NCBI GenBank assembly: GCA_963730915.1 | Contig: CAVSTR010000004.1 | Span: 407,014 to 471,013 of the forward strand | Origin: an uncultured Gemmatimonadales bacterium | GTDB taxonomy: Bacteria; Gemmatimonadota; Gemmatimonadetes; Gemmatimonadales; GWC2-71-9 | Length of the DNA: 64,000 nt | Reading direction: 5' to 3' | Shown here: positions 3,026 to 23,730 of the stretch, piece after piece | How the letters are laid out: each line of letters opens with the position of its first letter | Position numbering within the stretch: position 1 is the first letter of the stretch | The notes under the pieces: generated by a model | Databases searched by the model: none | Told to the model about the DNA's origin: nothing | Seen by the model: the letters and a program-made list of their open reading frames with translations, nothing else | Made by a program: the position numbers and the translations under genes

Positions 3026-3203
3026 AGATCGCTCCGGGTAATGGTAAGGCGTCCGCGTCTTCGATCGCGAGATACCCAAGCTAGTGGAATTGCTGGTGCC
3101 TTCGATACGCCCGAGACCACATCGATAGGGAGGCTCTCATAGCCGCTATGACCCCGGCTGCTGTCCGGCCGGGGGCGCCACTTGCGCTCCGCGGTCCTTT
3201 TGT

Positions 3204-5324: not shown

Positions 5325-6533
5325 TTAGCGCACAGACCGCAGCCCGGTGCGGACCTCCTGGGTGAAGGACGCCGGCTGCTCCCAGGCCGCGAAGTGCCCG
5401 CCTTTGTCGAGCTTGTTGTAGTGGATGAGCTTGGGATACGCCTTCTCGGTCCAGCTCCGTGGCGCCGGATAGAGCTCGTCAGGATAGACGCTGACGGCAA
5501 CCGGGATGGTGACGCCTTTCACGTTGAAGTACCCCTTGCCGAAATACTCCCAGTAGAGCCGGGCGCCGGATAGGGCCGTGTTCGTCAGCCAGGCGATGGT
5601 AATGTTGTCGAGGACGTCGTCGCGGGTGAGACCCTCGGACTGCCCCTCAAAGACGCGCCTGATGAGCTCGTAGCTGCGCAGGTCGTGATCGAGGAAGTAT
5701 GCCGCCAGTCCAACCGGTGAGTCCGCGATGCCGTACAGCGTCTGCGGCCTGAGCCCCATCTGGAAACCGTAGGCGATTCCCTTCTGATAGACATACTGCA
5801 GACGCTCGTAGGCGACCTTCTCGTCGGCTGAGAGATTCGACGGCGCCGGAGCCCCTGAGAAGGCCATCGCATCGATCTCGGCGGGAAAGATGCCGGGCAT
5901 GTTGGTGTGAATGCCGAGCAGCTCCGGTGGCTTTTGTGCCGCCATCAGGTCTACGATGACTGCCCCCCAATCGCCGCCTTGAGCCGCGAACTTCGTGTAG
6001 CCGAGCCGCTTCATCAGCTCCACCCAGGCACGTGCGATGCGCTCGGGGCCCCAGCCGGTGGTGCTCGGCCGGCCGGAATAGCCGTAGCCGGGCATCGACG
6101 GAACCACCACATGGAAGGCGTCCGACGCGCTCCCACCGTGTGCCGTAGGATTGGTCAGCGGATCGATGATCTTCAGCTGCTCGATGATCGAGCCGGGCCA
6201 GCCGTGGGTGACGATGAGCGGCAGCGCATCCTCATGCTTCGAGCGAACGTGAATGAAGTGGATGTCCAACCCATCTATCCTGGTGATGAAGTTAGGAAGC
6301 GCCTTCAGCCGCGCCTCGCATTTCCGCCAGTCGTACTCTTTTTCCCAATAGCTCGCGAGCGCTCGCATCGTCTCGAGCTGTACGCCCTGCGACTGATCGT
6401 CGACGGTCTCCTTCTCCGGCCAGCGCGTGGCCGCGATGCGCGCACGTAGATCCTCGAGATCCGCCTCGGGCGTTTCGATGGTGAACGGCCGTATCGCCGG
6501 GGCCGCGGCCGGCTTTGCGGTTGCAGTGGCCAT
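5325..6533 (-). CDS. Epoxide hydrolase (alpha/beta hydrolase with EH N-terminal domain)
   Basis: N-terminal domain signature (RPFTI..P.ADLEDLRARIAATRWP, ..YW..EYDWRK.E..LN) followed by HGWPGS. Confidence 0.85.
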   Translation of the reverse strand: MATATAKPAAAPAIRPFTIETPEADLEDLRARIAATRWPEKETVDDQSQGVQLETMRALASYWEKEYDWRKCEARLKALPNFITRIDGLDIHFIHVRSKHEDALPLIVTHGWPGSIIEQLKIIDPLTNPTAHGGSASDAFHVVVPSMPGYGYSGRPSTTGWGPERIARAWVELMKRLGYTKFAAQGGDWGAVIVDLMAAQKPPELLGIHTNMPGIFPAEIDAMAFSGAPAPSNLSADEKVAYERLQYVYQKGIAYGFQMGLRPQTLYGIADSPVGLAAYFLDHDLRSYELIRRVFEGQSEGLTRDDVLDNITIAWLTNTALSGARLYWEYFGKGYFNVKGVTIPVAVSVYPDELYPAPRSWTEKAYPKLIHYNKLDKGGHFAAWEQPASFTQEVRTGLRSVR

Positions 6534-6597: not shown

Positions 6598-6637
6598 CAA
6601 AAAACCGCCGGTTCACCTTGATAGGCGGCTCGGCGGT
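6598..6637 (-). terminator. Possible Rho-independent terminator on the minus strand
   Basis: Minus strand reads ACCGCCGAGCCGCCTATCAAGGTGAACCGGCGGTTTTTTG: a 6-bp GC stem plus a T6 tail. The loop is long. Confidence 0.5.
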
Positions 6638-6640
6638 CTT

Positions 6641-7245
6641 GGGACCTTCGCGGGCGCCACGACGGCGCGGAGGGGGCGAGGACCCGTGGCTTTGCGACAC
6701 CGGCTTTCGCCGGTTGTGCTCTTAGCTATGTGGTGGTGGCGAGGGGTACCATACCGCGCGGTACTGACCTCGTCAATGCTCCATCGTGCGGCTGAAGGTC
6801 AGCTGGTTCATCTTTCCTGCGGCCCTCCGCCTGTGTTCCGTGTCTCCTCTTCCCCGAGAGCAGATCCTTAACTCACTAAATGCGAAGAACGCTGACGATC
6901 TAAGTGCGGGTTTCGGATCGCGGTATTTAACTCGCGCGGTGTTTACTACGACACCCGGGGAAGAGAAGAGCAAGAGCTAGCTAAGCAATATCGGGATCGT
7001 GCCGACCAGGTAGAGGATAAAGGATATTATAGGTTTGCTGCCACCTTGAGACAGTTAGCTGCAGCCTACGAGCGGGATGCCAAGTTAGCTGCCAAGGAAA
7101 CGTTTGACCTCTAGGGACATGGGCCGTGTAGTGCTTGGGTTGCGGCCTATAAACGCGTGTGAACTTTCCAGCTGACTTTGGGTTGACTCCTGAACGGAGT
7201 GCTCGCTCGCGGGCCCACCAAGACTTTGCTGGCAGGTTGAAGGTT
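6641..7245. other. Low-GC (~50%) non-coding or decayed island of unknown nature
   Basis: There are stops in all frames. The only protein-like stretch is a start-less plus-strand reading 6896-7114. The minus strand has a GNRA-capped hairpin ACCGGC-GAAA-GCCGGT. Confidence 0.4.
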
Positions 7246-7265
7246 CTATATAGCCCAGGGACTTC

Positions 7266-9163
7266 CTAGCGATATCCGGCGGCTTGAAGCTGGAACAGCT
7301 CCGAGTACAGTCCTCCCAGCTCCACCAGCGCCTCGTGGGTCCCCTGTTCCACCAGCTCCCCACCCTTCAGCACCAGGATCCGGTCGGCCATCCGAACCGT
7401 CGAGAACCGGTGCGAGATCAGCACCGCCATCCTTCCTTTCGTCAGCTCTGAGAACCTGAGGAACACCTCGTACTCCGCCCGGGCATCCAGTGCCGCGGTG
7501 GGCTCGTCCAGGATCAGGAGCTGCGCGTCCCGCATGTAGGCCCGGGCCAGCGCCACCTTCTGCCACTCGCCGCCCGAGAGATCCACCCCGCCCTCGAACC
7601 GCTTCCCCAGCATCTGGTCGTACTGGCCTGCGAGCCGCTGGGCCACCGAATCGGCCAGGCTCCGCTCCGCCGCGGCCCTGATCGCGGGATCGTCCTCGAT
7701 CCGGGCGATGTTGCCCACGGCGATGTTCTCCTTCAGGGCGAAATCGTAGCGCACGAAGTCCTGGAAGATGACGCCGACGTTCTTCCGCAGGCTGTCGACG
7801 TCGTACTCCCGGAGATCCACGCCGTCGAGCAGGATCCGCCCCTCGTCCGGGTCGTAGAGCCGAGCCAGCAGCTTCACCAGCGTGGTCTTGCCGGCGCCGT
7901 TCTCGCCCACCAGCGCGATCCGCTCGCCCGGCGCCAGCGCGAAGTTGAGATGCCGCACCGCCCAGCTCTCCGCGCGGGGATACTTGAACCCCACACCCTC
8001 GAACACGAAGCCCTGCGTGATCGGCACCGGCACCTGCCGCGCACCCGGATTGCGCCGGATGCTGGGCTCGATGTCGAGGAAGCTGAACAGATCCTCCAGA
8101 TAGAGACTCTGCTCGAACACCTGCGACAGGGAGAGCAGCACCCGCTGGATCAGATCGCGGCTCTGCCGGAACGAGCCGGCGAGGAAGGTCAGAACTCCGA
8201 TGGTGAACACCCCGGCCCGCGACTCGTGCCCGATGACCGTCAAGTAGATGATGACGGCATACGCCCCGTAGTACCCCAGCGTGCCCACGAACGACAGCAA
8301 GGTGGACGCGACGCTCCGCCGGACCGCCAGGTTCCGGTTGGCCCGGTAGAACTCGTCCGACAAGCCGGTCGTACCGCCCGACCAGAAAATCCGACAGCCC
8401 GAAGAGCTTGAGCTCCTTGGCCGAGATGTCGCTGGCGCCGATGTAGCGGAGGTAGTCGAGCTGACGCCGCTCGGGAGTCCATGAATACAGGAGCGAGTAG
8501 CCCAGCGAGGCGAAGTGGGTCTCGCCCAGGAGCGACGGCAGCACCGCGACCACCAGCAACAGCAGCAGCCAGGGTACGTAGACCGTGAGCGCCGCGGCCA
8601 GGGTGATCAGGGTGATCAGGTCCTGCAGCGTCGCCAGCAACATCGTAAACAGGCCGATGCGGCCGACCGTCTGCCGCCGGGCCCGCTCCAGCTTGTCGTA
8701 GATCTCCGCGTCCTCGAACTGCTCCAGGTCGAGATTGGCGGCGTGCTTCATGAGCTGCACGCTGGTCCGGTTGGCGAACAGGTCTCCCAGGAGGCTCTCG
8801 AGCAGGGCCGATACTCGGCTCAATCCTTCGCCCACCAGGGCGATGCCGAGCTCGATGCCGACCAGGATCGCGAGACGGCTCCACGCCGACCTCGCCTCCC
8901 GCCTGCGCCACGTTGATCGAGTGCACCACCTCGTCCACGATGAGCTTCCCGATCCAGAGCACCGCCAGCGGAATGACCGACCGGGCGATCCGCAGCAGAA
9001 GGATTCCGACCACGTAGCCCGGCTTGGTCTCCCACACCATCCGGAGAAGCTTGGGCAGATGCCGAAGCGCCTGGAGCCGCTCGCGCCAGGAGCGGTCCGG
9101 CGCGGCCGGCATGCGTCCGCGTCCGTTGCCGCGAATGACGGGGTGTTGGAGAGGGAGGGACAT
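7266..9163 (-). pseudogene. ABC transporter, fused permease/ATPase (MsbA-like exporter), broken into three frames as assembled
   Basis: TM segments are in ORFs 8240..9163 and 7246..8835. The NBD is in ORF 7266..8363 (GENGAGKTT Walker A, LSGGEWQ signature, LLILDEPT Walker B). Frame changes lie near 8885 and 8360. Confidence 0.85.
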
Positions 9164-9164
9164 A

Positions 9165-9450
9165 CTCTAAAAGTAAGGGGACTAGGACAGGCGTGAGCGG
9201 GAAAAACGAAAACGTGAGCGGGACGAGGAGCAGCGTGAACCCGAGCGGGTACGGGTCACAATATCATCCGAGCGAGTAATCTGGGGGATTGCTTCGGCGC
9301 TCCGCGCCTCGCAATGACTGTTTGGCTGTTCCCGCTTACCGCTCACGTTTGTCCTAGCCCCGCTCACGCTTTTTCATACAGCCCCCCACCGCTCACGTTT
9401 GTCCCTTCGCTTCGCTCAGGGCGTGCCTAGCCCCGCTTACTCTTTTACCT
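9165..9450. repeat. Palindromic cassette A: GTGAGCGG-type left arm, ~65-nt core, CCGCTCAC-type right arm
   Basis: The left arm 9170-9255 is similar to the reverse complement of the right arm 9331-9450. The core 9256-9320 is shared with cassette B. Confidence 0.8.
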
Positions 9451-9485
9451 TAGGTCGTATCAGCTTCCCACCCCAGGAGACCTCC

Positions 9486-10214
9486 ATGGCAGTGAGTGCG
9501 GCGGCAGTACGGACGGCTCGGCGAACTCGGCGCTTCTACGTCGGAATGGCGATCGCCATTACCATCACCGTATTCGTCGGGTTCTCCCGCAGCTATTTCC
9601 TCAAATCATGGTACGGCACGCGGGAGCTGAGCGGCCTGCTCCACGTCCACGGCCTGATCTTCACCGCGTGGGTTCTGTTCTTCCTCTCCCAATCGGTGCT
9701 GGTGGCAACCGGCAGAACGTACCTGCACCGCAGAATGGGTATCGGCGGGGCCGTGCTGGCCGGGCTGGTGGTGATCGTGGGGACTGTGGTCGCGATCCAC
9801 CGGGCCAAGACGGGCGTGTCCCCCATTCCCGGGGTGCCGCCGCTTGGTTTCCTTGCGATTCCTCTTTTCGATATGGTCGTGTTTGCAGTGCTGGTGAGCT
9901 CAGCCATCTACTTCCGTCACCGGCTGGAGGCCCACAAGCGGCTGATGACGTTGTCCATGATCAGCCTGCTTGCGGCTCCGATAGCCCGGATGAACTTTCT
10001 CCCGCTGCCGCCCGGCCCACCCACGTTCTTCGGTCTGGCGGATCTCTTCATCGTGGTCCTGGTGGTGTATGATCTCTCGACTCGAGGGAAGGTACATCCT
10101 GCCACGATCTGGGGCGGGCTTCTCATTGTCGCCTCGCAGCCATTCCGGCTGATGATCTCCGGAACCGCGCCCTGGCTGGCGTTTGCGAGCTGGCTAACGG
10201 GTACTGCAACGTGA
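9486..10214 (+). CDS. Integral membrane protein (about 6 TM), family not recognised
   Basis: AGGAGA RBS 5 nt before the ATG at 9486, then repeated hydrophobic segments. The stop TGA at 10212-10214 lies inside the first GTGAGCGG unit of cassette B. Confidence 0.7.
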   Translation: MAVSAAAVRTARRTRRFYVGMAIAITITVFVGFSRSYFLKSWYGTRELSGLLHVHGLIFTAWVLFFLSQSVLVATGRTYLHRRMGIGGAVLAGLVVIVGTVVAIHRAKTGVSPIPGVPPLGFLAIPLFDMVVFAVLVSSAIYFRHRLEAHKRLMTLSMISLLAAPIARMNFLPLPPGPPTFFGLADLFIVVLVVYDLSTRGKVHPATIWGGLLIVASQPFRLMISGTAPWLAFASWLTGTAT

Positions 10215-10450
10215 GCGGGACAAACAGCGTGAGCGGGACTAGGACGAGCGTAAGCCGTGAGCGGAGAGATAATGTTATCCGAACGAGTGAGCCCGAGGAT
10301 GGCTTCGGGCTGCCCCCTCGCAATGACTCCGTCGTAAACGCCCGCTTACGGCTGCCCTCGTCCCGCTCACGCCTTCAGGCCCCCGCTCACCGCTTACGCT
10401 TGTTCTAGTCCCGCTCACGCTTTTCGTTGACCCCGTTTACCGTTCACGCC
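10205..10450. repeat. Palindromic cassette B (same family as A)
   Basis: 10227-10264 pairs with 10383-10420: of 38 positions, 1 is a mismatch and 2 are G-T. The core is at 10266-10330. Confidence 0.85.
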
Positions 10451-11157
10451 ATGTCGCAAACCGCCCTCATCACCGGCGCCACTGAAGGCATCGGCCGAGC
10501 CACCGCCTTCGCGCTCGCACGCGCCGGATACCGGGTGGGCGTGTGCGCGCGCACCGAGGCCAAGGTCCGGAAGCTGCGTCAAGGAGCTCGATGCCGAAGG
10601 CGTCGAGGCCGCCGGAGCGAGCGCCGACGTAGGCGACCCGGGTCAGGTCGACCGCATGGTGAAGCAGATCACAGGCTCGCTCGGCGAGATCGATGTGCTG
10701 ATCAACAACGCCGGAGTCCTGATCGGAAAGCCGTTCGAGGAGCTGACGCTGGACGAGTGGGACACCACCATGAACACCAACGTCCGGAGCCTCTTCCTGG
10801 TAACCCGAGCAGTGATTCCGGGAATGCGTGAACGGCGGCACGGATCCATCGTGAACGTCGCCAGCCTGGCCGGCCGCAACGGCTTCGTGGGCGGCACCGC
10901 CTACACCGCCTCCAAGCACGCGGTGCTCGGGTTCAGCCGCTCACTCATGCTGGAAGTGCGAAAGGACAACGTCCGCGTGATCGCGGTCTGTCCCGGCTCG
11001 GTGGACACCAGTATGCTGCGCGATCAGCCGATGCTTAAGTCGGAGCCCAGCCGCATCCTCCAGCCCGAGGACGTGGCCGCGGACGATTCTGCAGGCGCTC
11101 ACCCTCCCCGCACGCGCCCTGGTGAGCGAGCTCGACATCCGGCCGACGAATCCGTGA
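10451..11157 (+). pseudogene. SDR family oxidoreductase with two frame changes as assembled
   Basis: ITGATEGIGRATA, NNAG and YTASKHAV are present. Frame changes lie near 10581 and 11080. My re-framed C-terminus reads TILQALTLPARALVSELDIRPTNP*. Confidence 0.8.
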
Positions 11158-11171
11158 GGAGGGGCGGACGA

Positions 11172-11195
11172 GTCGGAGGGTCGGAGGGTCGGAGG
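11172..11195. repeat. Tandem octamer GTCGGAGG x3
   Basis: Read directly from the sequence, immediately after the SDR stop. Confidence 0.8.
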
Positions 11196-11238
11196 GCTGA
11201 CAGGCGAACATAGGATGGTGATATGACGACAACTGCTG

Positions 11239-11477: not shown

Positions 11478-13040
11478 GTGACCGTCCGCCGTCTGGCGGC
11501 TCGGATCGAGCGCTGGTGGCGGCGTCTGTCCTACACCGGCTCGATCGTCGGCGTCGCGATCATCATCGCCTGGCTCGGACTCTGGCTGTTCCGCCAGAAT
11601 GACGAGGTTGGGCTGCTGCTGACCTCGGTGGCGACGCTGCTCACGCTGATCACGTTTCGCCACATCCGGGAGTTGGCCGAAGCCCAGAAGGAGTCGCTCC
11701 AGCGCGCCCTGGCTCAGGCCGATCGGCGGAATCGCGAGCTGGAACGGCTCCGCCATCTGGCTGGAACGCTGCTCGCCGGCGCCGACCTCGAGAGCCTGAT
11801 GAAGGAGGTCGCTCGAACCGCGAGCGAGCTGCTCGAGGCAGACAGCGGCGGCGTCACGCTGGTGGTGGAGGAAGGCCGCTTCCTGCGGTTGATGGCGGCA
11901 TGCGGAACGCTCGAGCCGTTGGTTGGCCTGTTGCTGCCGATGGACGGATCGCTGCTCGGCTACGTGGTGAGCCAGGATACGCCGCTGGTCTCGGATGACA
12001 TGAGCGCCGATCCGCGCAGCTATCACCGCCCCAACATGTCGGTGACGCTGAAGACGGCGGCGATGATTCCGCTTCGGTCAGCCGGGGTGCCCATCGGCAC
12101 GGTGAGCGTCTACAACCGGCGCGACGGCCAGCCGTTCAGCGACCACGATCTCCGCCTGCTCCAGATCCTGGGCGACCAGGTGGTCGTGGGCCTCGACCGC
12201 GCCTCGGTGCTGCAGGAGAGCCGGCGCAACGAGCTCGCGCTGCGCACCAAGAACGTCGAGCTGCAGCGCGCCACCCAGCTCAAGAACGAGTTCCTCACCA
12301 ACATGTCGCACGAGCTGCGTACGCCTCTCAACGCCATCATCGGCTTCTCGGATCTGCTGCTGGACGGCGGTACCGGCGAGCTCAGCAACCCGCAGCGCGA
12401 GTTCACCGAGGCGGTGTCGCGAAACGGCAAGCACCTGCTCTCGCTGATCAACACCGCGCTCGATCTCTCCAAGATCGAAGCCGGCCGGATGACGCTCACC
12501 CTTGCGATGACGGATCTGCGCGAGGCCATCAAGGACGCGGTGGCCGACACGGCCAGCCTCCGGACCGCCAAGCGGCAGGAGTGCACGCTCGAGCTCGACT
12601 CCGACTCGCTGTCGATCCTGGCCGACGGAGGCCGCATTCGTCAGATCCTTTTCAACCTCCTGTCCAACGCGTCGAAGTTCACGGGCGAAGGCGGCAAGAT
12701 CTCGCTTGCGGCGGTGCGGACCAACGTTCCGCTGCGGCAGCCGGCCGAGCGCGCCGGCGAGCGCGCCCGGTTCGTCAATCAGGATGTGGTATGGGTGTCG
12801 GTGTCGGACGAGGGTATCGGCATTAAGCGGGCCGACATGCCCAAGCTGTTTCAGGAGTTCAGCCAGGTGGACAGCTCGTCCAGCCGCCGGGCGCAGGGCA
12901 CCGGCCTGGGGCTCGCCCTCTGCAAGAAGTTCGTGGAGATGCACGGCGGCACCATCGGCGCCGACTCCGTGTTCGGGAAGGGGGCGGCGTTCTGGTTCCT
13001 CCTGCCGGCTGAGGGGCCTGTACGCAGAGCTAATGCATAA
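11478..13040 (+). CDS. Sensor histidine kinase (TM, GAF, HisKA, HATPase_c); no adjacent response regulator
   Basis: H-box MSHELRTPLNAIIGFSDLL and G-box GTGLGLALCKKFVEMHGG. The start is placed at the in-frame GTG at 11478, just after the upstream stop. Confidence 0.88.
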   Translation: MTVRRLAARIERWWRRLSYTGSIVGVAIIIAWLGLWLFRQNDEVGLLLTSVATLLTLITFRHIRELAEAQKESLQRALAQADRRNRELERLRHLAGTLLAGADLESLMKEVARTASELLEADSGGVTLVVEEGRFLRLMAACGTLEPLVGLLLPMDGSLLGYVVSQDTPLVSDDMSADPRSYHRPNMSVTLKTAAMIPLRSAGVPIGTVSVYNRRDGQPFSDHDLRLLQILGDQVVVGLDRASVLQESRRNELALRTKNVELQRATQLKNEFLTNMSHELRTPLNAIIGFSDLLLDGGTGELSNPQREFTEAVSRNGKHLLSLINTALDLSKIEAGRMTLTLAMTDLREAIKDAVADTASLRTAKRQECTLELDSDSLSILADGGRIRQILFNLLSNASKFTGEGGKISLAAVRTNVPLRQPAERAGERARFVNQDVVWVSVSDEGIGIKRADMPKLFQEFSQVDSSSSRRAQGTGLGLALCKKFVEMHGGTIGADSVFGKGAAFWFLLPAEGPVRRANA

Positions 13041-13042
13041 AG

Positions 13043-13082
13043 AGCGTGAGCGGGACAAGGACGAGCGTGAGCGGTAAGCGGG
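13043..13082. repeat. Left arm of cassette C (AGCGTGAGCGGGACAAGGACGAGCGTGAGCGGTAAGCGGG)
   Basis: Reverse complement of 13503-13543, except for one bulge and two G-T pairs. Confidence 0.9.
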
Positions 13083-13145
13083 AAAACGTCACGATCGGCG
13101 CCTGTTTGGAATAAGCGTCAAGAGTGCTTGTGCGTATCGTGACGG

Positions 13146-13502
13146 ATGCGAGACCACAAGTCATTGCATGCATGGCAGGAAGCGCGTGGGGTCGTCCTCG
13201 GTACTATCGAGCTGGCACGTACTAGCTGGAAGCCGTATGCATCAGCTCTCTTTTCTCAGCTTCAGCGGGCATCCTTATCAGTGCAGTTGAACATCGCGGA
13301 GGGATATGCATACGGCCGATCGCGTTCGTTTACACGGCATGTGTCGATCGCCTATGGTTCTGCCGTCGAGACAGGAGAGCTATTGGAGGTCGCGCTGGAT
13401 GCAAAGATCGTGGCGAAAGAAGTAGGAGATCATCTTCTCGAGAGAAACCGCAGGAGTCAGCGACTACTGCTCGGTATGTTGCAAAGAATGAAGGCTACCT
13501 AA
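13146..13502 (+). CDS. Four-helix-bundle protein (23S rRNA intervening-sequence protein family, Avd-like fold)
   Basis: Family hallmarks: LHAWQEARGVV.., LQRASLSVQLNIAEGY, and SIAYGSAVETGELLEVA. Length is 118 aa. Confidence 0.85.
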   Translation: MRDHKSLHAWQEARGVVLGTIELARTSWKPYASALFSQLQRASLSVQLNIAEGYAYGRSRSFTRHVSIAYGSAVETGELLEVALDAKIVAKEVGDHLLERNRRSQRLLLGMLQRMKAT

Positions 13503-13574
13503 CCCTGCTTACCGCTCACGCTTGTCCTTGTCCCGCTTACGCTTTTTTGTCCCTGTCCTAGTCCCGCTCACGCC
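13503..13574. repeat. Right arm of cassette C (CCGCTCAC / CCGCTTAC / GTCCTAG units)
   Basis: Pairs with 13043-13082. Extra units extend to 13574. Confidence 0.9.
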
Positions 13575-13594
13575 ATTCCAGCTATACTGATCCT

Positions 13595-13993: not shown

Positions 13994-15380
13994 ATGCACG
14001 CTTGTGGTCGTACGGCCATTCTGGTGGGCACCTGCTGCCTGGGGCTGGCAATTCCCGCCCGGGCACAGACACCTGCCGCACTGGATTCACTGCGAAGGAG
14101 CCTCACCGCCACGTCGGCTCGAATCGACTCACTCGAGGCCGGTCTGTGTCCCGGTGGCTCGATCAGTCACTTCCGGCGAACCGGCAACGCCGTCACCGAC
14201 AGCATGGCGGCGACGCTGGAGCGGCTGGACCGCCGAGTCGCGGCGCTGCGAGCGAGTCGATGCACCGGCGCTCCGGCTCAGCCGGCGGACACCTCGGACG
14301 ATCTGGCCGCGCTCCGCGCCGCTGCGGCCGCCGCGGCGGGACAACCCGCACCATCCGACACGACCGAAAGAGCCGACACCGTCCCCTCGGCGGAAGCGGC
14401 TCCTCCACAGACAGCGGGGCCGAGGAGCGCCAATCTTCTCAATCCGGAGATCAGCGCCACGGGTGACGTGCGCCTGGTGGCAGCAGAGAACGCCCGCGGT
14501 GAGGCGGTGGCGCGAGAGTTCGAGTTCGCTTTTCAGTCGGCGCTCGATCCCTACTCCAACACCAAGATCTTCCTGGCGGCGAGCGATGAAGGCGTCGAGA
14601 TCGAGGAAGGCTACATCTACTACACCGGACTGCCGGGGCGGCTCCGGCTCGACTTCGGAAAGTTCCGCCAGCAGGTGGGCGACCTCAACCGCTGGCACGG
14701 CCACGCTCTTCCTGAGACCGAATATCCGCTGGTGTATCAGCGCTACTTCTCCGCGGAAGGCCTCGCCGGAGTCGGCCTCTCGCTCTACACCTCGCTCCCC
14801 TTCTCGCTCGGTGGCGCCACCCACGAGGTATGGCTGCAGGGCACCAGCGTCGAGAGCGATCCGCTGTTCGGCGGCGGCCGGGATCTGCTGTTCCTCGGTC
14901 GGCTCCAGAATTTCTGGCAGCTGAGCCGCAGCACCTACGCCCAGGTGGGCATCACCGGACTCGGCGGCGACAACGGAGGTGCGGATCTCAAGAGCCGGAT
15001 GGCAGGACTCGATCTCCGGGTGACCTATCGCCCACCCGAGGCCGCCACCCGCCGCGAGATAACGTTCCGGGCCGAGGGCTACCGGCTCCACACCGATGAT
15101 CTGGGCAATCACCGCGAACCGCTACGGCGGATTTCTCGATCTGTCCGCTCGCCTCACCCGCCGCTGGATACTCGGCGCCCGCTACGACCACGTCGACGCG
15201 CCGAGAGGTCCGGACGATTCCGAATGGCGCGTCACGCCGAACATCACCTGGTGGCAGAGCGAGTTCGTGTACCTCCGGCTCGAGGGCGAGCATCGGAATA
15301 CCGAGCTGGAGGGGAGCCGGAACATGCTGTCGTTGCAGGCGGTGTGGGCCATGGGACCGCATAAGCATGAGACGTATTGA
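13994..15380 (+). pseudogene. Outer-membrane beta-barrel/porin-like protein, one frame change near 15100
   Basis: Signal peptide, coiled-coil N-region, and alternating beta-strand pattern. After re-framing the C-terminus reads ..NMLSLQAVWAMGPHKHETY (ORF 15096..15380). Confidence 0.7.
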
Positions 15381-15590
15381 GGGCGGGGCGGCGGGGCGGC
15401 GGGGCGGCGAGGCGGTAAGGCGCTGAGCGCAACGAAGCGATCTCCAGATGACCAGACTTACTGAAGGAAGGACACCAATATGACGTTCACGATCACTGCT
15501 CATGTCTTGCAGGACTCATCGGACAACCTACTGCCCCGCTGCCCCGCAGCCCCGCTGAGCTTCTGCCCCGCGGCCCCGCGGCCCCGCCTC
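15379..15590. repeat. Palindromic cassette D built from GGGGCGGC-type octamers
   Basis: 15379-15416 is similar to the reverse complement of 15560-15590. The centre contains GCTGAGCGCAACGAAGCGATCTCC. Confidence 0.8.
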
Positions 15591-16574
15591 TCCGGATCGT
15601 CACCTCTCTCACGACCTACGGCGCCATCGCGCGCGAGATCGTGGGCGACCGCGGGACCGTCACCGCGATCGCCCAGGGCGACGAGGACCCGCACTTCGTG
15701 CAGCCGAAGCCGAGCTTCGTTCGGATCCTGCGCGACGCCGATCTGTTTGTCACCACTGGTTTGGATCTGGAGCTGTGGGTGCCGGCGCTGCTGGACCGTG
15801 CGGGCAACCGCAAGATCCTCGATGGCTGCGCCGGGCTACGTGGCTGCGTACCGCGGCATCGACTTGCTCGAGGTGCCGACCTCGCTCAGCCGCTCCCAGG
15901 GTGATATCCACGTGGACGGCAACCCGCACATACACACCGATCCCCTCAACGGGATCATCATCGCCCGGAACATCCTCGCCGGTCTCCAACGAGTGTCGCC
16001 CGGCGACGCGGCGTTCTTCGCCGGCCGCGAGAAAGATTTCGAGCAGCGGGTGCTCGAGGCCACCATGGGTTCAACGCTGGTGTCGGCGCTGACGCCGGGC
16101 ACCGCGTTCGAGCTGCTGCGCACCAATCGGCTGCAGCCGTTTCTCGCGGGCCAGAAGTTCCAGGGAAAGCCGCTCAGTGAGCAGCTCGGCGGCTGGCTCA
16201 AGCAGGCGGAAGTAGTCCGGGGAAAGGAAATGGCCTGCTACCACAAGGAGTGGGCCTACTTCAGCCGCCGGTTCGGGGTCGAGTGCATGACCTTCATCGA
16301 GGCCAAGCCCGGTATCCCGCCCACTCCCCGGCACGTGCAGGAGGTGATCGACCTCATGAAGGAGCGGAAGGTGTCGGCGCTCTTCGCCTCGAACTACTTC
16401 GATCGGAAACAGATCCAGCAGGTGGCCGAGCGTACCGGGGCCCGGGCGGTGATCGTCCCTGAGAACACCGAGGGCGCACCCGGAGTGAAGACCTACTTCG
16501 ATCTCGTGAACACCTGGATCACCAGCCTCACGGCCGCGTTTCGGAATGTCGCCGTACAAACCGGAGCATCCTGA
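15590..16574 (+). pseudogene. ZnuA/TroA-like metal ABC transporter substrate-binding protein, lacking start and signal peptide, one frame change near 15823
   Basis: My re-framed reading is LRIVTSLTTYGAIAREIVGDRGTVTAIAQGDEDPHFVQPKPSF...NRKILDG, then AAPGYVAAYRGIDLLEV..DIHVDGNPHIHTDP. Confidence 0.75.
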
Positions 16575-19575: not shown

Positions 19576-21919
19576 ATGAGTACCGCGGTTCTGGACACCC
19601 GTAGTTTCCCAGTTTCCGGCATGACCTGCGCTGCGTGCAGCGCACGGGTGCAGCGCGCCCTGGAGAGAGTTCCGGGTGTGAGCGCAGCCAACGTCAACCT
19701 GATGACCGGTTCCGCCACGGTCGAGTTCGACCCGGAGACGGTTGCACCCGAGCAGCTGGTCGAAGTGGTTCGCGCCACCGGGTACGGCGCCGAGCTGCCG
19801 GAGGCCGCAGCGTCCGCGGAAGAGGAGCTGCAGGATCGCGACGAGGTCCAGGCGGAGGAGCTCCGGGTTCTTCGCTGGAAACTGGTGGTCAGCCTCGTTG
19901 CCGCGGCGCTCACGATGGTGTTCAGCATGGTTCTGGCATCGGTGGCACCGGGATCGATGAGCGATCCCCTGATGCAGTTCATGATGCCGGCGACGGATTG
20001 GCTGCTGCAGAGCGTGCCCGGGCTAAACCGGGTCTCCGCTGACAGCTGGCGCTATCTGCTGCTGGGTCTCACCCTGCCCGTGGTCGGCTGGGCCGGACGC
20101 CACTTCTATACCCGGGCATGGTCTGCGTTCCGCCATCACGGTGCGGACATGAACACGCTGATCGCGGTCGGCACCGGGGCCGCTTTTCTCTTCAGTGTTG
20201 CCGCGACGCTCTTCGACGACTGGCTGGCTGCGCGCGGAATCGAGCCGCACGTCTACTACGAGGCCGTCACCTGGATCATCGCGCTCGTTTTGCTCGGAAA
20301 TCTGCTGGAGACGCGCGCCAAGGGGCGTACGTCCGGCGCGCTGCGCCGGTTGATCGGGCTTGAGACCGAGTACGGCGCGGGTGCTGCGAGCGGGGCGGGA
20401 AGAGGAGATCCCTCTATCCGGCCTTCGTGAGGGAGACGAGGTAGTGGTACGGCCGGGTGAAACGATTCCGGCCGACGGCGTGATCCTCCAGGGCAGCAGC
20501 TACATCGACGAGTCGATGCTGACCGGTGAGCCGGTGCCGGTTTCTCGCGGGGCGGGTGATCGGGTGATCGGAGCCACGCTCAATCGGAACGGCGCCTTTC
20601 ATTTCAGCGTCTCTCGCGTCGGCCAGGACACCGTGCTGTCGCAGATCATCCGCCTGGTTCAGCAGGCGCAGGGGTCGAAGGCGCCGATTCAGCGTCTGGC
20701 CGATCGCATCTCCGCGGTCTTCGTTCCGGTAGTTCTCTCTCTCGCCGTCGCGACTTTCGTGCTGTGGTTCGATTTCGGGCCGGAGCCGGCCTATCTGCAC
20801 GGCCTGGTCGCCGCGGTCACAGTGCTCATCATTGCGTGTCCCTGCGCGATGGGTCTCGCGGTACCAACGGCGGTGATGGTCTCGACCGGCCGGGGTGCGG
20901 AGCTCGGTGTTCTCATCAAGAAGGGAGAGGCGCTCGAGCGAACCGGGCATCTCGACGTCCTGGCTTTGGACAAGACCGGCACCGTCACCGAGGGTCGCCC
21001 GGTCGTCGAATCCGTCAGCATCGCGCCGGGAACAGAGATGGACGCGAATACGTTGCTCCAGCTCGCCGCCTCGGTCGAGCGTCTGAGCGAGCATCCCCTT
21101 GCCGAAGCGATCGTCGAGGAAGCGGAGCGGCGGGGCATCGCCGGGCGCGACGTAGTGGACTTTCGAAGTTTCGCCGGCAAGGGTGTCACCGGACTGGTCG
21201 AAGGCCGTCAGGTCGCCGCGGGCAACGCGCTGTTGATGGTGGCGATCGGCGCCGACACCGCCCTGCTGCGGGAAGAGTCGGAGCATCGAACCCGGCGGGG
21301 ACAAACCACGGTGTTCATCGGGGTGGATGGCGAGCTCGCCGGCCTCATCGCGGTCGCGGACCCGATCCGCCTGACGAGCTCGAACGCTGTGAGCCGCCTT
21401 CGCAAACTGGGCCTGGACCTGGTTCTGCTAACCGGCGACGACGACCGCACCGCACGCGCGGTGGGGAAGTCGGTTGGGATCGAGCGGGTCATCGCCGAGG
21501 TATTGCCGGATGAGAAGCTCCGGGTGGTGCGGCGAATCCAGGAAGAGGGCAAGACGGTGGCGCTGGTGGGTGACGGGCTCAACGATGCGCCGGCGCTGGC
21601 CCAGGCCGACATCGGTATCGCGATGGGAACCGGAGTCGACGTCGCGGTAGAGGCGGCCGATATCGTCCTCATGCGGAGCGACTTGCTCGGCGTGGTCGAT
21701 GCAATCCGGCTCTCTCGCCGGACCATGCGCGTGATCCGGCAGAATCTGTTCTGGGCGTTCGTCTATAACGTCATCGGCATTCCCATCGCGGCGGGCGTTC
21801 TATACCCGCGCTTTGGTCTGCTGCTGACACCGGCGATGGCAGCGGCAGCGATGGCGTTGAGCTCGGTCAGCGTTGTGACGAATAGTTTGAGACTGCGGAG
21901 ATACAGGAGTAAAAGGTGA
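19576..21919 (+). pseudogene. copA: Copper-translocating P1B-type ATPase, one frame change at the GGG run 20356-20358
   Basis: N-terminal GMTCAAC HMA domain, CPC ([11 protein letters not shown]), DKTGT, and [10 protein letters not shown]. Removing one G restores ..[22 protein letters not shown].. Confidence 0.9.
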
Positions 21920-21993
21920 AGAGTGAAGAGTGAAACCCACTGTTCACTGTTCACCGCTGACGGTTCACTGTTCACTTTTCACTTTCACCTCAC
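21915..21993. repeat. In-phase heptamer array that switches polarity: 3 x (A/G)GTGAA(G/A), then 8 x TTCACTG-like
   Basis: GGTGAAG AGTGAAG AGTGAAA CCCACTG TTCACTG TTCACCG CTGACGG TTCACTG TTCACTT TTCACTT TCACCTC. The copA stop TGA lies inside the first unit. Confidence 0.85.
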
Positions 21994-22016
21994 GCTGTTT
22001 GACTAAGGAGTTCCCC

Positions 22017-22364
22017 GTGTCCACCGAGACCATTACTTCGCCCTGCGCGTGCGGCGCCCGGCCGGGCGACGGAACTCACGCCGTCGAGGTCGATCCCGAA
22101 GCCAAGCACGCCATCGTCAGTCGACTACGGCGAATCGAGGGTCAGGTTCGGGGGCTCCAGAAGATGGTGGACGAAGAGCGATACTGTGCCGATGTGCTGA
22201 TGCAGCTGTCGTCGGTGCAGGAAGCGTTGCGTGGTGTGGGCCGCGCGCTGCTGGAGAATCACCTGAGACATTGCGCCACCGAGGCGATCCGCTCTGCCGA
22301 CCCCGCGAAGACGGAAGCTATCTACGAGGAGTTGATGGAGCTGATGTATAAGAACGCGAGGTAA
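22017..22364 (+). CDS. csoR: CsoR/RcnR family metal-sensing transcriptional repressor
   Basis: RLRRIEGQVRGLQKMV..RYCADVLMQLSSV..HLRHC. GTG start follows an AAGGAG RBS. Confidence 0.88.
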   Translation: MSTETITSPCACGARPGDGTHAVEVDPEAKHAIVSRLRRIEGQVRGLQKMVDEERYCADVLMQLSSVQEALRGVGRALLENHLRHCATEAIRSADPAKTEAIYEELMELMYKNAR

Positions 22365-22438
22365 GCGGGTAAGCGGGTAAGCGGGTAAGCACGGGTAAGC
22401 GGGTAGCGGAGCTAAGCGGTAAGCGGGTAAGCGGGTAA
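22361..22438. repeat. Tandem octamer array GTAAGCGG, about 9-10 units
   Basis: Read directly from the sequence. The csoR stop TAA lies inside the first unit. Confidence 0.9.
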
Positions 22439-22449
22439 GACGAGAAGGT

Positions 22450-22537
22450 GTCACCCTGAGCGAAGCGAAGGGGCCGGAAAAGTATCCTTCTGGGATACCT
22501 TCGTGCTAACACCCCCGCGTCCTGAACTCAGGGTGAC
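22450..22537. repeat. 88-nt hairpin module GTCACCCTGAG...CTCAGGGTGAC with nested stems
   Basis: The 11-bp terminal inverted repeat encloses inner pairs CGAAGG/CCTTCG and GTATCC/GGATAC. A 19-nt block is identical to 9403-9421 on the opposite strand. Confidence 0.85.
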
Positions 22538-23730
22538 GATTTTCCGATTTTTTCTCTCTTCCGCGCCTTGGCGGCGCCGTCTTTCCCGTCCTTCCCGACC
22601 TTCTTCGACTCTTCCGCCCGCTCATCCCTGAACTTCAGCGCCGCACGATACTCCTTCACCAGTCGCCCCATCATTGCCTCCCGCCGAGCGTACAACCGCT
22701 TGAGCGGACGACTCTCGTGGCGCTCTCTGGCATACGCCGTCAGCAGCGGCAGCCCAATGGAGCTGTCGGTATACACCACCACCGTTCCCGGAAGCTGGTC
22801 CGGATCGATCTTGCCCCAGCTCACCGCTTCAGCGGGGGTGGCGCCTGAAAGGCCGCCAGTGTCGGGACGGGCATCGGTGATCTGCAGGAAGTAGTCGTGG
22901 CCCCGCTCGTCGATGCCGAGCACCTCCTGGATCTGCGGCTCGGTCTGAAGCATGAAGTTCTTGGGGCTGCCTCCGCCGACGATCAAGACTCCGCTCTTGC
23001 CTCCAGACCGCTTGGCCTCCAGCACGATGCTGGCGGTCTCGTTCACATCAGCGCTGACATCGAACCTGAGCTTGCTGCCGGCAAGCGCCTGCTCCGCCAC
23101 GTTCATCCCGATCGAGCTGTCTCCCGGGGAGCTGGTGTAGATCGGCACCTCGAATTCGTGAGCGGCTGAGAGCACCGAGCGCCGGGAGAGGCCGAGCGCG
23201 CGCTCCCGCTCGCGGACGTAGCCACCCAGCAGGTAGTGGTACTCCGCGGAGCTCATCGGTCGCTGGAATTCTTGCCGAGCCGACACCTCGCGAACGAACG
23301 CGTCGGTCGAGAGCAGGACGTTGTAATCGAAGAAGATGTCGTAGATCCGCACCACGCCCTTGTCGCGCAGCTCCACATCGTCGGCGCCGGGAGTGCCGCG
23401 ATGCATCGCGAGGCCCAGTGCGAAATGCGCATCGTGGTAGAGGTTGGCTCCGGTGGAGATGATCCAGTCCACGAAGCCGGACTCCATCAGCGGAATGAGG
23501 CAGCTCATGCCGAGCCCCGCCGGCGTCATCGCACCGGTGAGCGTCATTCCCACGGTGGTGTCCGGCGCGAGCATTCGTTCGGTAAACAGCTGACAGCCCT
23601 CCCTCAGGCGGCCCGCGTTGTACGCCAGGAAGGCGTTGTCGATCAGCTCCGCGACGGTTTCCCTGCCGGTCGTTGCCTTTGGATCGATCCGCTGGCCGCG
23701 CAGGTACTTCGCGGAAGGTCGGCTGTTCAT
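22528..23730 (-). CDS. Deoxyhypusine synthase-like (homospermidine synthase-like) protein with Lys-rich C-terminal tail
   Basis: DHS family blocks: [28 protein letters not shown]. Start placed at the ATG at 23730, which overlaps the upstream stop. Confidence 0.85.

Follow-up and report, generated by a model that had tools for sequence, protein, structure and literature searches.

In a 64-kb stretch (64,000 nucleotides; hereafter the window) of the genome of an uncultured Gemmatimonadales bacterium, a membrane-protein gene lies between two long imperfect hairpins, cassettes A and B, neither of which holds an open reading frame (ORF). We consider it probable that A and B derive from two nested kinds of hairpin-bounded selfish DNA, of which they are partly decayed copies without an ORF. 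The outer layer would be a pair of inverted arms made of tandem units of 7-8 nt, the characteristic flank of cassettes that carry a gene of the PF05635 family (23S rRNA intervening-sequence protein, IVP). The inner layer, at the apex of the arm hairpin, would be a truncated element of the kind that carries Ssn nuclease genes, consisting of half a central hairpin and one terminal module, and it seems to have lost most of its length at a later stage. Through this core, a Gemmatimonadales genome is tied to the Ssn nucleases and their target repeat, the Ssn-related motif (SRM). Comparison loci from other genomes carry L numbers throughout.

Anatomy of cassettes A and B

An earlier note on this DNA had described A and B as members of one family that flank a single membrane-protein gene and share a core, and the layout that it gave was borne out (Table 1). 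The left arms of both cassettes consist of GTGAGCGG, GTAAGCGG and CTAGGAC units on the plus strand and the right arms of their complements, and these units are common to A, B and the ORF-bearing cassette C, to whose family A and B belong. In the window, GTGAGCGG occurs 22 times against 5.4 expected, a count that was reached in 0 of 100 shuffles, and 15 of the 22 copies fall within A, B and C. The stem of B pairs 10220-10264 with 10383-10427 (45 nt, paired at 89%); its segment 10227-10264 x 10383-10420 has, as claimed, 35 Watson-Crick pairs, two G-T pairs and one C-C mismatch over 38 positions. The interiors of A and B, of about 80-95 nt, have no similarity to IVP genes. They contain the common core in one orientation, with 76% identity between 9260-9297 and 10271-10308 (38 nt) and an exact 13-mer, CCTCGCAATGACT, in both. 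Cassette A occupies the entire 322-nt divergent spacer between the bracketed gene and an ABC exporter gene, and its left arm begins 9 nt after the start codon of the exporter (9163, minus strand). Its right arm also holds the remnant of a nested mini-module (9403-9425, minus strand, CCCTGAGCGAAGCGAAGGG). No Pfam family was found for the bracketed protein.

Table 1. Positions of the hairpin cassettes, their parts and the bracketed gene in the window.
Feature	Position	Strand	Description
Cassette A	9165-9450		Long imperfect hairpin without ORF; units GTGAGCGG, GTAAGCGG, CTAGGAC
A left arm	9172-9252	no strand	CTAGGAC and GTGAGCGG(GAC) units with A-rich linkers
A interior, left block	9258-9277	+	ACAATATCATCCGAGCGAGT; left half of central hairpin ATCCGAACGAGT-loop-ACTCGTTCGGAT, right half deleted
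A interior, intact SRM-like module	9283-9321	-	A-GTCATTGC-GA-GGCGC GGA GCGCC-GAA-GCAATCC; matches the strict grammar
A right arm	9332-9446	no strand	Unit complements and T-runs
Bracketed gene	9486-10214	+	Hydrophobic protein, 242 aa; stop codon TGA within the first GTGAGCGG unit of cassette B
Cassette B	10205-10450		Long imperfect hairpin without ORF; units GTGAGCGG, GTAAGCGG, CTAGGAC
B left arm	10208-10264	no strand	
B interior, left block	10269-10288	+	ATAATGTTATCCGAACGAGT; half of central hairpin as in A, with identical truncation
B interior, degraded SRM-like module	10294-10330	-	P1 mismatch (GCCA for GCAA); one P2 pair broken
B right arm	10341-10450	no strand	Reaches the ATG of the SDR gene (10451), without room for a Shine-Dalgarno spacer
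Cassette C	13040-13575		Arm units of A and B around a 118-aa PF05635 (23S_rRNA_IVP) gene at 13146-13502 (+)
Further ORF-less hairpin cassette	15375-15595		Arms GGCGGGGC (left) and CTGCCCCG (right); partial module CTGAGCGCAACGAAGCGATC; fold z -3.9

The core module and the Ssn system

On its right side, the core consists of a single hairpin module, in which a covarying hairpin stands between GATTGCTTCGG and CCTCGCAATGAC. The pattern GATTGCTTCGG-N(0-30)-CCTCGCAATGAC was found at no fewer than 120 loci across phyla, isolate genomes included; hosts among the matches listed are Chloroflexota, Bacteroidota, Pseudomonadota, Helicobacter, Omnitrophota, Planctomycetota, Patescibacteria, Nitrospirota, Lachnospiraceae and others. 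The grammar of the module is Y-GTCA-P1-GA-[P2 hairpin]-GA(A)-P1'-TC, and the sequence beyond Y-GTCA...TGAC-R is random. P2 is Watson-Crick paired at positions 1-4 in 83, 76, 69 and 66%, against 36, 34, 28 and 29% with the halves re-dealt, and from one module type to the next the two sides of the outer stem change in a compensating way (TTGC/GCAA, TCCT/AGGA, TTCT/AGAA and CCCT/AGGG). Inverted doublets hold 65% of the modules, with a modal spacer that places the partner 14-18 nt upstream, and a doublet takes the form of a four-way junction when folded (z about -8 for both strands). Modules are also nested within the inner hairpin of other modules (L008, L001). A covariance model, R1, built from 102 module copies gave exactly two matches in the window, one to A (47.3 bits, E 7e-10) and one to B (22.9 bits, E 1e-3, two non-standard pairs). 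The earlier note had named recurrence and covariation as the test of the core, and the module part of it shows both, with many independent occurrences and a covarying stem.

All eight small GIY-YIG genes that we examined (about 95 aa) are enclosed by an inverted pair of modules. They come from L110, L141, L344 (Fibrobacter), L346 (Spirochaetales), L347 (Rhodospirillales), L350 (Uhrbacteria), L351 (Brachyspira) and L022 (TCCT module type). The left module lies 7-40 nt ahead of the ATG and the right module at or just past the stop codon. The L110 protein showed 50% identity (E 9e-17) to the ssnA locus of Neisseria gonorrhoeae, where the ssnA gene, of 94 aa, has copies of the repeat NTS, CGTCATTCCCGC...GCGGGAATCTAG, all around it; a PDB sequence search with the GIY-YIG protein gave no match. 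The Ssn nucleases, GIY-YIG proteins with a single domain and a length of about 94 aa, bind and cut hairpin repeats only as single-stranded DNA (ssDNA) and in one orientation. The target repeat is named NTS in Neisseria and SRM elsewhere; it frames ssn genes on both sides in the manner of insertion-sequence ends, and the published share of Ssn genes so bracketed is 42-71% (Chenal et al. 2025, PMC11893778). Based on the bracketing of GIY-YIG genes and the homology between L110 and ssnA, we conclude that the module is a variant of the SRM/NTS repeat.

Like the repeats of the SRM/NTS-dRS3-Ssn system (Chenal et al. 2025, PMC11893778), the module is an oriented hairpin repeat of 20-50 nt with (C)GTCATT at its 5' end and AATCYRG at its 3' end, it brackets a GIY-YIG gene of about 94 aa, and it has ORF-less intergenic copies across phyla. 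The ends GTCATT and AATCYRG are shared with NTS: on the minus strand A reads AGTCATTGC...GCAATCCCCCAG, the L008 copies end GCAATCCAG, and the NTS in L352 reads CGTCATTCCCGCGCAGGCGGGAATCTAG. In the window, a repeat with these flanks was found in A and, in degraded form, in B; the arrangement with a repeat on both sides of an Ssn gene was found in other genomes and not in the window. The earlier note's suggestion that the core is the remnant of a lost passenger comes close, in that Ssn-type GIY-YIG cassettes have this module as their terminal repeat and the orthologous A-site of the relative L022 keeps a frameshifted GIY-YIG gene between modules.

However, the module differs from the published repeat in that its stem is broken by a GA/GA(A) internal loop and its second hairpin varies freely and can host further modules. 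The copies in A and B are, moreover, solo, truncated and few; they have no ssn within 64 kb and lie inside the arms of another element. The subtype with the GA/GA(A) internal loop and the free second hairpin lies outside the published SRM definition, and the published pattern, HGTCWYN(0-2)YYVSBRHN(0-5)WNVSBRGN(0-2)RNCYNB, gave 0 matches in the window (1.0 expected from shuffles).

Several traits of the module also recall the REP/BIME/REPIN elements (repetitive extragenic palindromic sequences and their composites), which are mobilized by RAYT, a Y1 HUH transposase (PMC3116915, PMC2817692). These are a short imperfect palindrome after a conserved 5' tetranucleotide, inverted doublets and mosaics in intergenic DNA, recognition as ssDNA hairpins, and the lack of target-site duplications; direct-repeat matches at 54 module pairs were at chance level. 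However, the bracketed gene encodes a GIY-YIG/Ssn nuclease and not a Y1 RAYT. The ORFs beside 242 modules showed GIY-YIG as the sole recurrent family, with no RAYT flanked by repeats, and both the near-identical sequence across phyla and the low copy number here are unlike REP elements. We therefore find it highly improbable that the modules are moved by a RAYT.

With crude gene calls, modules occupied tandem, convergent and divergent spacers at background proportions. A looser grammar, N4-GA-x-GAA-N4', was rejected as non-specific (23 matches against 10.8 expected), and a hammerhead or kink-turn reading of the GA/GAA loop was rejected by reasoning only, because core nucleotides are missing. 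In published texts, the sequence strings of the module were matched by primer coincidences only. Modules are also present on plasmids of Methylosinus trichosporium OB3b (L340) and Calothrix (L341) and in the uncultured gut phage contigs MT835503, MT839991 and MT835476, and are unannotated in all these records. An RNase III gene lies directly beside the module at two of 120 loci (L113 6528-7268, L114 1107-1811), maybe by chance.

In the Gemmatimonadota sample, which is biased toward this locus, TTGC-type modules gave eight matches in 414 kb, and most of these flank the membrane-protein gene, in three genomes (A and B of the window; L008 4613-4753 and 5783-5890; L001 3250-3314). In these copies ...AATGAC is followed by T, and in other phyla A or G stands there in 94% of copies.

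It is conceivable that A and B form a working SRM-gene-SRM arrangement, in which both modules would still be targets for an Ssn whose gene lies elsewhere in the genome, and ssDNA cutting would modulate recombination or transformation across the membrane-protein gene. In Neisseria, NTS are concentrated around genes for membrane proteins, and transforming DNA that carries NTS shows lower integration (PMC11893778). Modules of one orientation flank the same gene in L008 as in the window, and L001 has a B-site module; TTGC-type modules are otherwise rare in the Gemmatimonadota sample, and the A module is intact at 47.3 bits. However, P1 and P2 pairs are broken in the B module, no ssn gene lies within the window, and the closer relatives L002 and L022 hold other fillings at these sites. 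In addition, the apparent enrichment at the membrane-protein gene is biased, because the loci were sampled around that gene. We thus regard live targeting of A and B as unlikely.

Tandem-unit arms and PF05635 genes

The gene product of cassette C belongs to PF05635 (E 4.4e-19), and the cassette as a whole folds with z -7.3. Cassette C is the ORF-bearing counterpart of A and B; a PF05635 ORF in the loop was found only in C and not in A or B. We also analyzed the Gemmatimonadota relatives of the cassette C gene that had enough flanking sequence, and 45 of these 52 IVP genes were surrounded by inverted arms of tandem 7-8-nt units. The unit changes from genome to genome (GGTGAGCG, GGTGAACG, GTGAAGA, GGTGAGAG, GATAGAC and others). 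IVP genes with such arms were found at one Patescibacteria locus and three Bacteroidales loci as well, where the arms are of (CAGTTCA)n, (TGTTGAAC)n, (TTGTTGAT)n and similar type (L335 1455-1490 and 1880-1910; flanks of L336, L337 and L339). The architecture is not specific to Gemmatimonadota and occurs in at least three phyla. A search of genome contigs with the arm pattern GTGAGCGGGACNAGGAC gave, among the matches listed, mostly chance hits in high-GC coding DNA, the informative ones being L155, L178, L189 and L224.

The site of cassette C was found in several states. In L004 (4626-4653) it is empty, with 16 nt from the stop codon of a histidine-kinase gene to the next ATG and no arms; in the window and in L002 it holds arms plus an IVP gene, and in L022 repeat debris only. 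In L002 (8496-9066, against 13040-13575 of the window), the orthologous IVP gene, 86% identical, is reversed between the same arms, which indicates inversion through recombination between the inverted arms. The empty, filled and inverted states suggest that arms and gene are gained and lost together and that the interior can flip. Such gain and loss would take place between a stop codon and the next start codon.

Intervening sequences of 23S rRNA that encode PF05635 proteins occur in Leptospira, Coxiella and others. They are inserted at helix 25 or 45 and excised by RNase III, and IVP genes were first found in such excised rRNA stem-loops. A, B and C share with these sequences a long stem formed by inverted flanks, and C, like 45 of the 52 Gemmatimonadota IVP loci, also has a small four-helix-bundle PF05635 gene in the loop. 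Unlike them, the arms here are tandem arrays of 7-8 nt between protein genes, and A and B have no gene; no rRNA was found in the window, and thus no IVP insertion in helix 25 or 45 of 23S rRNA. The arms also resemble the heptamers of the short tandemly repeated repetitive (STRR) class, reportedly described from cyanobacteria by Mazel in 1990 and, with nested small dispersed repeats, by Elhai in 2008. The common traits are intergenic 7-nt tandem arrays and small hairpin elements inserted in one another. However, the arrays here form inverted pairs around a gene or its remains, and the likeness is one of design, not of compared sequence. The IVP family is related to Avd of diversity-generating retroelements (PMC10053308), but no reverse transcriptase lies nearby. 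We found no published description of the IVP tandem-unit-arm architecture, nor of repeats flanking PF05635, TIGR02436 or 'four helix bundle protein' genes.

Folding and the question of RNA-level action

The cassettes could instead act at the RNA level, with the arm stems in read-through transcripts serving as RNase III sites, as terminators or insulators, or, together with the core, as a regulatory or small RNA. In favor of this, the hairpins have very high stability and extend from a stop codon as far as the following start codon, with T-runs behind several right-arm units and A-runs ahead of left-arm units, and minimal versions resemble bidirectional terminators (L178). The discovery of IVP genes in RNase III-excised stem-loops, mentioned above, would also agree with this idea. 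However, both strands fold equally well: against shuffles, whole cassettes gave z of -4.9 (A) and -9.5 (B) on the plus strand and of -5.5 (A) and -6.9 (B) on the minus strand. The earlier note had remarked that the G-T positions would pair as G-U only in plus-strand RNA, and this detail did not generalize. Among 46 IVP cassettes we counted 103 wobble pairs in the sense and 97 in the antisense direction, and transversions (228) were as common as transitions, in a test that is confounded by the ability of the interior to invert between the arms.

Read-through would not be expected at cassette A, given its place in a divergent promoter spacer. An intrinsic-terminator scan called none in 9000-10600, because the cassette loops are too long for the scan. 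Searches with Rfam 15 of the window, the canonical doublets and L001 found no family at gathering score or at permissive E-values; besides a sub-threshold Acido-Lenti-1 match in L001, the matches were only spurious long-hairpin microRNA models far below threshold. The suggestion that the core is a small RNA is not supported, given the lack of an Rfam family and of wobble strand bias, the broken pairs of the B module, and the fact that the cores of about 70 nt, folded alone, are no better than shuffles (z about -1). In addition, Ssn acts on ssDNA and not on RNA (PMC11893778). Taken together, we see little likelihood that the cassettes work at the RNA level.

Synteny and spacer contents in related genomes

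The 24 closest relatives of the bracketed gene all come from Gemmatimonadales metagenome-assembled genomes (MAGs), and the gene is conserved and syntenic in this order. The ABC exporter, membrane-protein and SDR genes are adjacent in L001, L002, L004, L005, L010, L013 and L022. Additional genes interrupt the order in L003 and L006, with the neighbors kept, and in L008 and L009 the SDR gene also follows the membrane-protein gene. Both spacers are filled differently in each genome. At the B-site, L006 has arms only, L010 has arms plus 45 nt, and the alignment of L006, L010 and L005 places a module pair of about 135 nt in L005 exactly at the apex of the arm hairpin. One further state consists of left units only, and other fillings are modules of the TCCT, TTCT or CCCT type, the frameshifted GIY-YIG gene, and an IVP gene. 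A 52-nt segment within the right arm of A (9389-9440) is 94% identical to L002 5818-5869, which lies in the B-site spacer, and this shows exchange between the sites.

These comparisons bear on the reading, hinted at by the earlier note, that the membrane-protein gene travels in a composite mobile element with A and B as its ends. The cores to the left and right of the gene do have the same orientation, both in the window and in L008. However, synteny is kept in at least nine relatives while the spacers change, each cassette alone is a closed, self-contained hairpin, and neither a transposase nor target-site duplications were found. We consider this reading, which the synteny contradicts, the least probable of the explanations.

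The left part of the core has a narrower distribution than the module. The left block, ACAATATC(AT)CCGA(G/A)CGAGT, was found in only three metagenome contigs (L147-L149), where two inverted modules enclose a central hairpin (ATCCGAACGAGT-loop-ACTCGTTCGGAT) and the block makes up its left half. The element in its entirety lies, in L147 and L148, inside arms of octamer units that extend from a stop codon to nearly the next ATG. In both A and B, the central hairpin is missing its right half and the left module is absent, and this single common truncation marks them as local paralogues; the pair is most simply explained by conversion between neighboring spacers. L008 carries a complete version of the core element on both sides of the membrane-protein gene. 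The exact 65-nt core of A and B gave 0 matches in the genome collection, which evidently lacks the genome of the window. Thus, the local duplication that the earlier note had named as a counter-explanation does apply to the A/B pair, as duplication or conversion of an exact core found nowhere else, but the components of this core are widespread.

At the other end of the B-site, the start codon of the SDR gene abuts the right arm without a Shine-Dalgarno spacer in the window (10430-10453) and in L001, L004-L006, L008 and L010, and several SDR orthologues have TAGTAT or TACTAT 6-7 nt ahead of the ATG. Judged by this position, a leaderless SDR mRNA with its -10 box in the end of the arm would fit. 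In L001, the B-site filling of about 250 nt is rich in hairpins and contains the Acido-Lenti-1-like match (3149-3185, 27.9 bits against a gathering score of 37, E 2e-4 in a 451-nt search).

Proposed mechanism and implications

Insertion at the hairpin apex, the lack of target-site duplications and the inversion of the interior together point to hairpin-directed breakage and copying, and not to cut-and-paste transposition. We propose that the elements may spread at the DNA level, starting from breaks or ssDNA events at hairpins, which would be followed by copying from a filled site with arms or modules as homology. A and B may then have arisen by local conversion between their two neighboring spacers. 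In this genome A and B are most likely relics, with side effects at most: they place hairpins at gene boundaries and possibly serve as Ssn targets if a cognate Ssn is encoded elsewhere in the genome.

Several points weigh against the reading of A and B as decayed nested selfish elements. The published SRM pattern matched 0 of 127 canonical modules although the NTS control matched, and tblastn found no ssn or GIY-YIG homologue in the 64-kb window. The copy number is low, with two modules in the window and eight in 414 kb of Gemmatimonadota loci. Pure decay does not explain modules of the same orientation on both sides of the gene, which are found again in L008. In addition, we know of no mobility function for IVP proteins, and the mechanism of spreading is one that we infer.

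The SRM/Ssn layer has been known since 2025. New findings are a module subtype that the published pattern does not cover, the occurrence of this subtype in Gemmatimonadota, and its nesting. Given that the published pattern misses a large cross-phylum subtype, in which the stem is interrupted and the second hairpin varies, SRM censuses and catalogues of Ssn specificity are incomplete. The IVP tandem-unit-arm architecture and the insertion at the hairpin apex also appear to be undescribed. PF05635 is a very large family for which, to our knowledge, no function outside diversity-generating retroelements has been described, and the arms suggest the testable idea that its genes travel as hairpin-bounded cassettes. 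Going further, PF05635 cassettes with inverted tandem-unit arms might represent a second, undescribed cross-phylum class whose apex is preferred by Ssn/SRM elements, with mosaics formed by ssDNA-hairpin breakage and copying; this is a tentative proposal, toward which we lean much less than toward the nested origin of A and B. The series of orthologous spacers offers natural before-and-after states from which the entry of such elements into hairpins could be worked out, namely empty, arms only, arms plus modules, arms plus gene, and inverted gene. For annotation, such mosaics explain many spurious small ORFs and hypervariable intergenic spacers.

Other features of the window

Two further repeats were observed in the window. 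A plain hairpin of GTGAAGA/TTCACTG heptamers lies at 21900-22000 (z -4.8), and at 22360-22545 a one-sided GGTAAGCG array (9.8 copies) is followed by a GTCACCCTGAGCGAAGCGAAGGGG...CAGGGTGAC hairpin between convergent genes. The ABC exporter (7246-9163, minus strand) and SDR (10451-11213, plus strand) genes are each present as two overlapping ORFs in different frames, and the SDR frame break corresponds to one extra base near 10577 relative to L002. These splits are probably long-read assembly errors, as related MAGs are MFD nanopore bins, or else pseudogenes. Finally, a c-di-GMP-I riboswitch aptamer was found at 6621-6730 on the minus strand (47.3 bits against a gathering score of 35), upstream of a minus-strand gene that ends near 6533.

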